DNA of 10,965 nucleotides from IMG/VR virus record IMGVR_UViG_2737471855_000015. One strand, 5' to 3'. The stretch is from a virus (lineage: Duplodnaviria; Heunggongvirae; Uroviricota; Caudoviricetes). This document shows, one piece after another, positions 9,001 to 10,965 of this stretch. A program made the position numbers. The stretch's first letter is position 1; each line of letters begins with the position of its first letter.

Positions 9001-10965
9001 GCCGATGAGGTCATAAAGTTTTCGATGACCACAATCATTTCGCATTTCGATTCGTCCTGCAGAATTTCATGCGTTTTGTTGATGTCAGAATGCTGATTAA
9101 CGAGGGTATTTCCCGCGTAGTTCCAGATGGACTCCATTGCCAGACGGATGGATGGACTTGAAGTAGTTGACTCAATGCTACTTAAGGTCCTGATATGACT
9201 GACATTAATCATGATAACACTGTATATCCATCCAGTTCTTTCTCTGGGTCTCCCTATCTGTATCAGCAAGTCTACACCTCAAGCCCTGACACAAGGCTGA
9301 CACAAATCAATCTACTCAGCGTAGCTAAGCCTCAGTTAGTCCGCAGAGCCAATGGTCGATATACTATCCGCTTCAGACTCAAGGGACAGACCACACCGTT
9401 TCTTTCAGTATCGACCCGCAGCACAGACAGGAGAGTAGCCACAATGCGTCAGAGAGAGCTTGCAGCCACCGCTAAGGCCTTCATGTTGGATAGGCCTGAA
9501 GTCTCACTACAGGAGCTTACAGAGCATCTCCGGTCTATGGCTGAGCAGTTCCTGACAGACGCTAGTGACGATTACTGGAATGGACTTGAGGTCGCTACTC
9601 TGGTCGACGAGAAGTCCAACCTGAAGGAGCTAGCCGCTACGCAAGCCTTGAGTCTGGACCAGCAGAAGGGCATAAGGTTAGCGCTTGAAGTCCTGACCGC
9701 AGCACAGCAGAGGGTAGACACTGGTGATACCTCTGGTCTGATTAAGCTGATTGATGATAATAACCTTACTGATGACTCAACTATAGGCGACTCTACGTCA
9801 ATTCTGAATAATGAGCAGGGGGATAGACCGGCAGTTTTCACACAGGAGCGCCAGTCATCTGTAGTTTTTTCAAGCCTAGTGTCCTCGCTGCTGGCTGAGA
9901 AGGTCCAGACCCTGAAGACATCCAGCTACAAGGACCTCTCGTCCTCACTCAATACTGTCTCCCGGTTCCTGCCTGAAGACATGGACCTGATGTCCCGCTC
10001 TGGGTGGCTGGCTGTCAGGGACTCTATGCTGGCTTCTGAGGTGAGACCATCGACAATCAACAAGCTGCTGACCAAAGCGAAGATGTGTCTCGATTATGGC
10101 CTGATGAATGGGCAACTTGAGGGCCGCAACCCTATTGAACGGATGAAGCTGACCAAGGATATCGACTCCAAGCGCAGAGCGTTCACAGACGAGGAGCTGG
10201 AGAGACTTCTGGTCCGTGTTGAGTCTGAGTATCAGTTCACACGACACACGGCTCACACGACCTCTGAGGCCCGTAGATGGGCGTCTCTGGTGTCTGTGGT
10301 CACTGGCGCTCGGTCTGCTGAGGTCTGCCACCTGACTAAACGTGACATTGTAACCTTGGACAATGGACTGGTCTGTATCGACATCAATGAAGATGGGGAC
10401 GGGAAGTCTGTGAAGAACAAACATTCAGTCCGACTTGTGCCGTTAACCGATGGCGCTTATGGGTTTGACCTGACGTCCTTCCTGTCGTGGGTAGACATGC
10501 AGCCTGATGAGGGTCCTCTCTTCGGGATGACTCCGAGCGCCTACTCTAGCTGGTTTAACTCAAGGGTCCTGACTGAGGCCCTAGGAGACTCTCAGGATGT
10601 CTCTCTCCACAGTCTGAGACATTGGCTGGCGACCCGAATGAAAGAGCGTGGAGTCAATCTGGTGGACGCTCAAGGCATCTTAGGTCACAGCAGTCAGTCA
10701 ATTACGTATGACCTGTACGGGAAAGGACACGCTGTGGGTAGGCTGGCTGATGTGCTTAAGACAGCTTTACTTTAAGTAGGGAGACCCAAGGTGGAGACCA
10801 TATACGGCTTGATGGTTGAGACCTTGGGTCACTGAAGTCTGACTGAAGTTAGGGAGGGTGATAATAATCATAATCCCTCCTGACTATAGGCCCACTGGTC
10901 CGCCTTCGGCTGTCCGACTCTAAGTCTGTCTGTGGTCTTATTTAAACGTAACCGGCTCATTTAAA

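Follow-up and report, generated by a model that had tools for sequence, protein, structure and literature searches.

The right end of a 10,965-nucleotide stretch of DNA that is filed as a virus in IMG/VR (record IMGVR_UViG_2737471855_000015; the whole of that stretch is termed 'the window' below) belongs to a genomic island inserted in the ynfE gene of Escherichia coli, the first gene of which (int) encodes a tyrosine integrase of 526 amino acids (aa). Our joint reading, which we hold with considerable confidence, is that this protein is the lambda-type integrase of an island whose cargo genes lie behind T7-type promoters and probably respond to infection by T7-like phages. The window is identical (100%) to the chromosome of E. 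coli RM10410 (NZ_CP042350.1), in reverse orientation, and leads from left to right through a prophage remnant in ynfG, ynfF, the 3' part of ynfE and then int on the plus strand. The features at the junction are as follows.

8103..9133, minus strand: 3' fragment of ynfE (codons ~466-808), separated by the island from the 5' part of the gene
9117..9133, no strand: core of attL, GTAGTTCCAGATGGACT, the 17 bp common to attB, attL and attR
9195..10775, plus strand: int, tyrosine integrase of 526 aa (RefSeq 'site-specific integrase')
10776..10947, plus strand: island DNA 3' of int; stable hairpins at 10783-10830 and 10853-10880

A first-pass annotation, made from the window's sequence, had proposed that the element integrates in or next to ynfE, and the comparison with an uninterrupted gene bears this out. 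The DNA at 8103-9133 (labelled in RefSeq as a partial molybdopterin dinucleotide-binding protein) corresponds to reverse-complement positions 1-1031 of the ynfE gene of strain K-12 at 99.9% identity, and the remaining part of the K-12 gene aligns 12 kb further to the right, at the far end of the island. A sequence of 17 bp (GTAGTTCCAGATGAACT; ynfE positions 1015-1031) is found at both ends of the island, and the intact K-12 ynfE is equivalent to the two flanks joined; a duplication of this kind at both ends is the signature of site-specific insertion. Element-specific DNA starts at 9134. As a result of the insertion YnfE is cut at residue ~471 and acquires 14 foreign residues, and its Molybdopterin domain is not restored; excision would restore the gene. 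The insertion site itself is already published, since the TIGER survey (Mageeney et al. 2020, PMC7192596) catalogued Eco892.7.ynfE and Sfl13.8.ynfE as islands of 7-8 kb that disrupt the Molybdopterin domain of ynfE, and proposed them as candidates for 'regulated gene integrity'.

The product of int is a genuine, full-length integrase of the lambda Int type, in which arm binding on the one hand and core binding and catalysis on the other fall to separate parts. It matches Pfam PF00589 over residues 334-508 (7e-14; 52.4 bits, with a cut-off of 27.1) and the phrog_1 integrase profile (7.6e-40), and conservation reaches 90% or more for each of its catalytic residues (R373, K407, H472, R475, H498 and Y508) in an alignment of 28 family sequences. 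The best Foldseek matches of an AlphaFold2 model of the protein (with a predicted local distance difference test score, pLDDT, of 76) were full-length lambda Int, at the top, and the Int protein of Tn1549, with E values of ~2e-6. The arm-type domain was modelled with pLDDT above 80, as three strands (residues 47-50, 56-60 and 70-73) and a helix (79-99). The complete order of domains is given below.

aa 1-45 (9195-9329), plus strand: disordered N-terminal extension
aa 46-100 (9330-9494), plus strand: arm-type domain
aa 101-189 (9495-9761), plus strand: extra helical domain of four helices
aa 190-222 (9762-9860), plus strand: disordered linker
aa 223-330 (9861-10184), plus strand: core-binding domain
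aa 331-526 (10185-10772), plus strand: catalytic domain

The description of this protein as 'unusually long' in the first-pass annotation did not hold: its length is normal because other members of its own integrase family measure 470-540 aa. The excess over integrases of 350-450 aa consists of the N-terminal extension (~45 residues), the helical domain (~90 residues) and a linker of variable length (~35 residues). The helical domain and the linker are common to the whole family, and the extension was not found in more distant relatives. The helical domain, placed between the parts of the enzyme that bind the arm and the core, may act as a spacer or serve in oligomerisation. A stretch rich in D, S, T and N that had been pointed out earlier is real (residues ~175-210), and residues 191-220 are disordered in the AlphaFold2 model; natural alleles vary by in-frame insertions and deletions at three places, and this stretch is one of them. 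Among phage genomes, full-length relatives were encountered in T7-like phages only. The Pseudomonas phage vB_PsyP_3MF5 (Warsawvirus, Autographiviridae, Studiervirinae) encodes an integrase of 502 aa at the right end of its genome, to which the ynfE-island protein is 33-34% identical over residues 46-522, and an integrated prophage (L013) holds another relative (P0138), which has T7-type genes for terminase, spanin and tail as its neighbours.

The island that carries int is present in 141 of 5426 complete E. coli genomes (2.6%), and the same codon of ynfE is occupied in Citrobacter, Kluyvera, Shigella and Leclercia, where the element retains 85-99% nucleotide identity and the flanking ynfE sequence shares no more than 76-79% identity with the E. 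coli gene; near-identical integrase proteins are also recorded from Citrobacter, Enterobacter and Shigella. Free of insertion sequences (IS), the island measures 6.6-6.8 kb, and it reaches 12 kb in RM10410 through two copies of an IS66-family element. It holds six or seven genes, arranged from left to right as int, a variable middle (a KilA-N/Ant protein and unknown proteins of small size) and a right half that is conserved, with an open reading frame (ORF) of ~70 aa, genes for proteins of 163 and 328 aa and, in most copies, an ORF of 79 aa. The recognisable genes among them are int, the KilA-N/Ant gene and the 79-aa ORF (a homologue of T7-type gp7.3, as described below) only; the replication, packaging, head, tail and lysis modules of a complete prophage were not found in the 6.7-kb island.

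A sister element was recognised on a contig of 6794 bp (L009, from Logan ERR10768130). It encodes an integrase of 538 aa that belongs to the same family (31% identity), followed by a DUF4145 gene that overlaps the end of int, one promoter of Kayfunavirus type and the same right half, with the genes for the 163-aa and 328-aa proteins at 82% nucleotide identity. The contig was considered as a possible excised circle and rejected as such, being the sister element at an apparent tRNA gene: its element start adjoins 30 nt that we read as the 3' terminus of a tRNA-Gly(CCC) gene. No more than these 30 nt of the candidate tRNA are present on the contig, where ARAGORN did not call a tRNA.

The cargo genes of these elements are preceded by T7-type promoters, near-exact copies of late promoters from virulent T7-like phages, which lie outside the window. 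The features concerned, with coordinates in the extended loci of RM10410 (L001) and of E. coli strain a15 (L002; NZ_CP122492), are listed below.

L001 25035-25044 and 25464-25473, L002 16328-16337 and 16757-16766, cargo strand: promoter cores CACTATAGGG, also present in L005, L006, L007, L009 and L012
L002 19430-20416: gene for the 328-aa protein
L001 31477-31713: ORF of 79 aa, gp7.3 homologue, after the 328-aa gene; also present in L006 and L007

Fourteen CACTATAGGG sites were found. All are inside int-linked elements, with the orientation of the cargo; 13 belong to mapped islands, the one in L012 is directly downstream of a related integrase, and the host DNA at the flanks (~150 kb) contains none. 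In E. coli, one site (CCTAAACTATCACTATAGGGAGA) immediately follows the stop codon of the first cargo gene and is upstream of the next ORF, and the other (ACTTGATTATCACTATAGGGGAA) lies ~35 nt upstream of the first cargo gene. The former agrees at 22 of 23 positions with phi10, a promoter annotated in the Kayfunavirus CR44b (a Citrobacter phage), and the 17-mer of this site occurs two to four times per genome in about twenty phage contigs of 39-40 kb, a pattern that is repeated for promoter 17-19-mers of the islands generally. The Leclercia island contains two tandem pairs, each consisting of a T3-like site (TTATACCCTCACTATAGGGA) and then a Kayfunavirus-like site, and the Kluyvera island has sites that are identical to ones present twice in phage CR8. 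Promoters of helper type are present in the islands and are oriented toward the cargo, the expression of which might be coupled to a helper phage. No RNA polymerase gene was found in the island. Two CTATAGG motifs within the window (at ~9781, in int, and ~10884, after int) were also considered as T7-type promoters and rejected; used as controls, their 14-mers gave scattered single matches in viral contigs.

The second connection to T7-like phages is the 79-aa ORF, whose product is homologous over its full length to the virion protein gp7.3 (phrog_1320, 1.8e-11; 39% identity to gp7.3 of CR44b), a protein that carries the label 'host range and adsorption protein'. RM10410 has this ORF intact and a15 in a frameshifted or divergent form; the Kluyvera island and the sister element lack it. 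The cargo as a whole is under purifying selection, with ratios of nonsynonymous to synonymous substitution (dN/dS) of 0.05-0.22, and the gene for the 328-aa protein (0.05-0.13) is the most conserved among them. That protein has no match in Pfam, PHROG or the PDB. Major capsid and head proteins are over-represented among the non-significant fold matches of its model, which is a lead and not a result; an hhalign comparison with a T7-type capsid protein was negative, and the 163-aa protein, considered as a homologue of the T7 scaffold, showed no similarity to it. The idea that the island is a deletion derivative of a sequenced phage was likewise rejected, since no nucleotide similarity was found beyond the promoters. 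As a separate observation, strain a15 contains near the right end of its island (L002 20721-20801), directly after a terminator-like hairpin, an ORF of 26 codons that has AAGGAGG as a strong ribosome-binding site and would specify the very hydrophobic peptide MDLHKVYLVVFLLKLVLVVVLTVRVR.

The core at which the island is joined to ynfE contains an imperfect palindrome (AGTTC-CAGAT-GAACT) and was seen in all 27 of 27 metagenome contigs. It occurs once in the window when up to three mismatches are allowed, so that the adjoining paralogue ynfF is not a target. Position 9130 (core position 14) is a G in the attL of RM10410 and an A in attB and attR, which places strand exchange to the left of 9130. 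The position is polymorphic (G or A) in attL, with G in 22 of the 27 metagenome copies (L263-L289), a pattern that fits an attP carrying G at core position 14. The attP junction was reconstructed as …CTTCAAGTCCTT-GTAGTTCCAGATGRACT-CCATTGCC…. Three further features of the region between the core and the beginning of int bear upon recombination and upon the expression of the enzyme.

9134..9194, plus strand: 61-bp int leader, proximal P' arm of attP, with an AAGG Shine-Dalgarno sequence at 9184-9187
9154..9190, plus strand: inverted repeat and predicted RNA hairpin, GGACTTGAAGTAG...CTACTTAAGGTCC, with a 13-bp stem and the Shine-Dalgarno sequence in its 3' arm
9287..9306, plus strand: tandem TGACACAAG / TGACACAAA in int codons 31-38, candidate arm-type Int sites of the P' arm

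The leader differs from those of Citrobacter, Kluyvera and Leclercia at 3-6 of its 61 bp, for a synonymous divergence (dS) of int of up to ~0.5. Its hairpin has a predicted energy of -15.5 kcal/mol (z = -3.2), and the same fold is predicted in four genera, which differ from one another only at loop positions or by changes that retain a G-U pair; the inverted repeat could form an RNA hairpin over the ribosome-binding site or, equally, be a palindrome bound by protein. The loop 12-mer TTGACTCAATGC (9167-9178) has just two occurrences in 30 kb, one per att arm. In the same 30 kb the exact 9-mer TGACACAAG occurs three times, always less than 200 bp from the core (once in int and twice in the right arm). 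The tandem copy in int reads TGACACAAG-GC-TGACACAA, and the tandem recurs twice in the right arm. A 26-nt block that contains the int copy shows no variation, third codon positions included, among six sequences that represent five genera; the right arm of the Kluyvera island has this tandem too, and TTGACTCAATGC is conserved there as well. We read these repeats as candidate arm-type Int sites, in which case the P' arm would extend ~190 bp into int and part of the N-terminal extension would be constrained at the level of DNA. The earlier remark that the interval between the junction and the ATG leaves little room for a promoter holds, in that no sigma-70 consensus is found there: in two scans, one of them more lenient, no credible sigma-70 promoter was detected in the leader, the antisense flank in ynfE or the reconstructed attP, and the weak matches were at or below chance. 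The further proposal of the first-pass annotation, that int is transcribed from host-side or junction sequences, gains no support from these scans. The region downstream of int is also predicted to fold strongly as RNA (-61.2 kcal/mol, z = -2.4).

The position at which translation of int begins determines whether the arm-type domain is part of the protein. The ORF of 526 codons drawn in the first-pass annotation is real and reads, as was claimed, away from the junction and into the element, on the plus strand from 9195 to 10775. The start that had been given at 9138 is roughly the position of the junction, the ATG being at 9195, and the interval between the two, rightly described as short, measures 61 bp beyond the 17-bp core and not 58 bp. 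An in-frame TAA at 9183 makes an extension of the ORF upstream impossible and leaves, ahead of the arm-type domain, no start other than the ATG at 9195. The same annotation had mentioned, as an alternative to its own reading, a true start at an internal methionine (Met84), which would yield an integrase of normal length, in this case 443 aa, with the 83 codons upstream as an untranslated leader. One feature of the gene invites that reading.

9429..9446, plus strand: tandem rare codons AGG-AGA (aa 79-80), which spell AGGAG (9429-9433), 10 nt upstream of Met84 (9444)

Some gene callers do choose Met84, on int as on its relatives P0124, P0125, P0132 and P0138. The proposal nevertheless appears very improbable, and was rejected on the alignment, the predicted fold, selection, the pattern of insertions and deletions (indels) and the upstream reading frame of relatives. 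Residues 46-83 form a conserved three-stranded sheet that runs into the very helix that carries Met84, and relatives of 470-500 aa align from residue ~40 onward at 30-47% identity, sharing the motif P-x-x-RR-x-G-x-Y-x-x-R-x-R-x-x-G…S-L-R-T…A-M, of which Met84 is the conserved M. Codons 1-83 are under purifying selection (dN/dS of 0.26-0.32, and of 0.11-0.21 for codons 46-100, relative to the Citrobacter and Kluyvera orthologues), and natural alleles range from 524 to 543 aa with indels that are all in frame (at aa 39-45, 186-191 and 222). Finally, two relatives that are annotated in databases from an internal methionine encode the arm-type domain in frame upstream of it, so that the short calls are artefacts of annotation. 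The long ORF therefore stands, and a minor second isoform, started at Met84 and lacking the arm-type domain, is conceivable.

The codon usage of int, reported at the outset as rich in AGA, AGG and TCT and unlike that of the neighbouring genes, does fall outside the host range. AGA and AGG account for 18 of its 38 arginine codons, as compared with 0-8% in 21 neighbouring host genes, TCT for 19 of its 57 serine codons, and its codon adaptation index (built on local host genes) is 0.566, as compared with 0.68-0.79 for the host genes. From the bias a recent import from a donor of different composition had been deduced, of which the horizontal acquisition stands (the island is clearly horizontally transferred) and the donor composition does not. 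The GC content of int (0.519) and that of its third codon positions (0.577) are both host-like, and the bias is confined to int, with AGA or AGG at 1 of 56 arginine codons in the other five island genes. It recurs in the integrase gene of the sister element (12 of 37) and in that of an unrelated lambdoid element 25 kb away (14 of 30). Since the other island genes lack the bias and the neighbouring lambdoid int has it, the bias follows the class of gene and not the element. It is a trait of int genes, as in lambda, and not the signature of a donor; import from a compositionally distinct source is an improbable account of the unusual codons, far from the host range though these are. Rare arginine codons limit the synthesis of lambda Int (Zahn & Landy 1996, as cited in PMC6456624). 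The positions of AGA and AGG are conserved in Citrobacter and Kluyvera, yet selection for rare arginine codons as such was rejected, since the 12 of 16 positions that keep their status in the comparison with Kluyvera are not clearly above the expectation from a dS of ~0.5.

Taken together, these observations suggest a sequence of events for the island. Int recombines the 17-bp core in the element with the identical sequence in ynfE (codons ~466-471), splitting the gene. The hairpin over the ribosome-binding site, the rare AGA and AGG codons and possibly the binding of Int to its own 5' region would together keep the enzyme scarce, and the cargo would remain silent until an infecting T7-like phage supplied a matching RNA polymerase. 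What follows would be either transfer of the island as a satellite or interference with the assembly of the phage. T7-type promoters could also act as replication origins, as at the primary origin of T7. On a broader and more tentative reading, the ynfE island and its sister might constitute an undescribed family of ~6.7-kb elements of Enterobacteriaceae that is wired to virulent T7-like phages; the late promoters of Kayfunavirus, T3-like and CR8-like phages would possibly be what drives the cargo, and the outcome, on which we are equally guarded, could be either the first satellite of T7-like phages or a defence element that sabotages their assembly. A search of the literature, which was incomplete in its coverage and leaves novelty provisional, yielded no description of a satellite or island linked to T7-like phages, nor of an integrative element that exploits the strictly lytic ones that infect enterobacteria.

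Several observations weigh against a functional, phage-responsive island. Neither the promoters nor the gp7.3 homologue is part of the window, and the 328-aa protein, the main cargo product, has no assignable fold (AlphaFold2 pLDDT 45). The copy in RM10410 may be crippled, its cargo region being interrupted by two IS66 copies; int is frameshifted in Leclercia NCTC13032 (L007 10001-11588) and split by an IS3-family element in Shigella flexneri SFBU1023 (L006 10001-12830), and some copies of the island are evidently decaying. A recognisable excisionase was not found in the island, nor was the attP junction in IMG/VR (2.9 million viral contigs) or in JGI metagenome contigs, and all 27 of 27 metagenome copies are integrated, assembled contigs being a weak test of excision. 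The leader hairpin shows no compensatory changes, the assignment of arm-type sites draws on repeats and conservation only, and no promoter was found for int, whether in the integrated DNA or in the excised form as reconstructed. Metagenome contigs of island size (6.6-6.9 kb) were examined as excised circles and rejected, since all start in ynfE and have no terminal overlap; that they break just outside the core indicates that occupied and empty sites are mixed in the samples.

Decay is the centre of one competing explanation, in which the island is the inert remnant of a temperate T7-like prophage and its integrase a functionless relic. The family of int and the gp7.3 homologue do point to T7-like ancestry, and the IS copies, the frameshifts and the failure to find a circular form agree with loss of function. 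We consider this explanation unlikely, on account of the same unit of 6.6-6.8 kb with the same junction in five genera, the sister element with the same cargo at an apparent tRNA gene, and dN/dS values of 0.05-0.3 for int and cargo; furthermore, the element has no nucleotide similarity to sequenced phages beyond its promoters, and tandem promoters of different specificities, as in Leclercia, are not expected of what a single phage has left behind. The other explanation is that of the TIGER authors, in which regulated excision makes the element a 'gene integrity' switch for ynfE and possibly for ynfFGH-dmsD. It accounts for a disrupted and unrestored Molybdopterin domain and for one site that is hit across genera; it is hard to reconcile with the lack of any excisionase, regulator or excised form among the sequences searched, with the paralogue ynfF next door, and with the sister element, whose location at an apparent tRNA gene implies that the cargo is not tied to ynfE. 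We regard a switch function as quite improbable, and a lambda-type integrase serving an island with phage-responsive cargo as the better account of the data.

The remaining features of the window concern the neighbours of the junction and the right edge.

5619-8045, minus strand: ynfF, intact
10948..10965, plus strand: left end of ISCro1 (IS66 family), the first IS of the RM10410 island

The IS-free island of strain a15 and that of RM10410 match as far as island position 1814 (window 10947), and the match is taken up again 2.7 kb further on. This first ISCro1 copy has an 8-bp target duplication and lies directly after the terminator region of int; IS66 tnpA, tnpB and transposase genes are annotated directly to the right of the window, and the two copies in the RM10410 island occupy L001 ~22050-24750 and ~26500-29190. 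To the left, a second and unrelated prophage remnant (window 1-5608) is inserted in ynfG, of which an 84-nt stub is left at ~5525-5608; with the ynfE island, it breaks the ynf operon of RM10410 twice. Among its genes are hok/sok (with the Rfam sok match at 616-790) and three paralogous BRO/Ant antirepressor genes, the latter each directly preceded by a copy of the Rfam family sRNA-Xcc1 on the minus strand (3705-3795, 4583-4668 and 5120-5208; 65-73 bits, with a gathering score of 53). No sRNA-Xcc1 was found in the ynfE islands.

The integrase is ordinary for its family, and in itself adds little beyond a defined recombinase with a 17-bp target in a non-essential gene, an att site into which the start of its own gene extends, and a further int with rare arginine codons; the interest lies in the element that carries it. 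If the proposal is true, an island that reads the RNA polymerase of an invading phage would be a new kind of infection sensor, with relevance to phage therapy, in which T7-like phages are widely used. It can be tested with available phages (CR44b, K1F-like and T3-like) and with the strains, 2.6% of complete E. coli genomes, that bear the island naturally.

Comparison with known systems places the enzyme and the element in different company. Lambda Int and other arm-binding integrases of known structure (5j0n, 1z1g; Tn1549 Int, 6emz) have the same arm-type domain of a sheet plus a helix, and the same core-binding and catalytic domains; lambda-type integrases likewise have the R-K-H-R-H-Y residues, repeats in both att arms and many rare arginine codons. 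The int of the ynfE island shares with lambda int (Zahn & Landy 1996, as cited in PMC6456624) a proportion of about one half of AGA and AGG among the arginine codons, with an early tandem pair. The ynfE-island integrase differs in being ~170 residues longer, by virtue of its N-terminal extension of 45 aa, its four-helix domain and its long disordered linker, and in a sequence identity of only 16-18%; an att arm overlaps the 5' end of int, and no recognisable Xis is present in the island. The integrases of temperate T7-like phages (3MF5 and the L013 prophage) are of the same family and architecture and are also encoded at the end of the genome. Those phages, however, possess a full 40-kb genome and their own RNA polymerase, whereas the ynfE element has 6.7 kb and no polymerase, and the N-terminal 45 residues of its integrase were not found in these relatives. 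The islands catalogued by TIGER are of the same element type at the same ynfE site; that paper maps coordinates, and its abstract, main text and searched supplement contain no integrase architecture, att anatomy, codon bias or T7 link. Among satellites, the ynfE island has none of the AlpA, Fis, primase and small terminase genes of minimal satellites, and its proposed link to a helper would consist of promoters for a phage RNA polymerase and a gp7.3 homologue. It nevertheless resembles the PICMIs (phage-inducible chromosomal minimalist islands) of Vibrionaceae (PMC10803314), P4-like elements and PICIs (phage-inducible chromosomal islands) in being a small, integrase-bearing island with few genes; the ynfE island and its sister have the variable cargo slot (KilA-N/Ant in one and DUF4145 in the other) that is seen in minimal satellites, and PICMIs also depend on virulent helper phages (PMC10803314).

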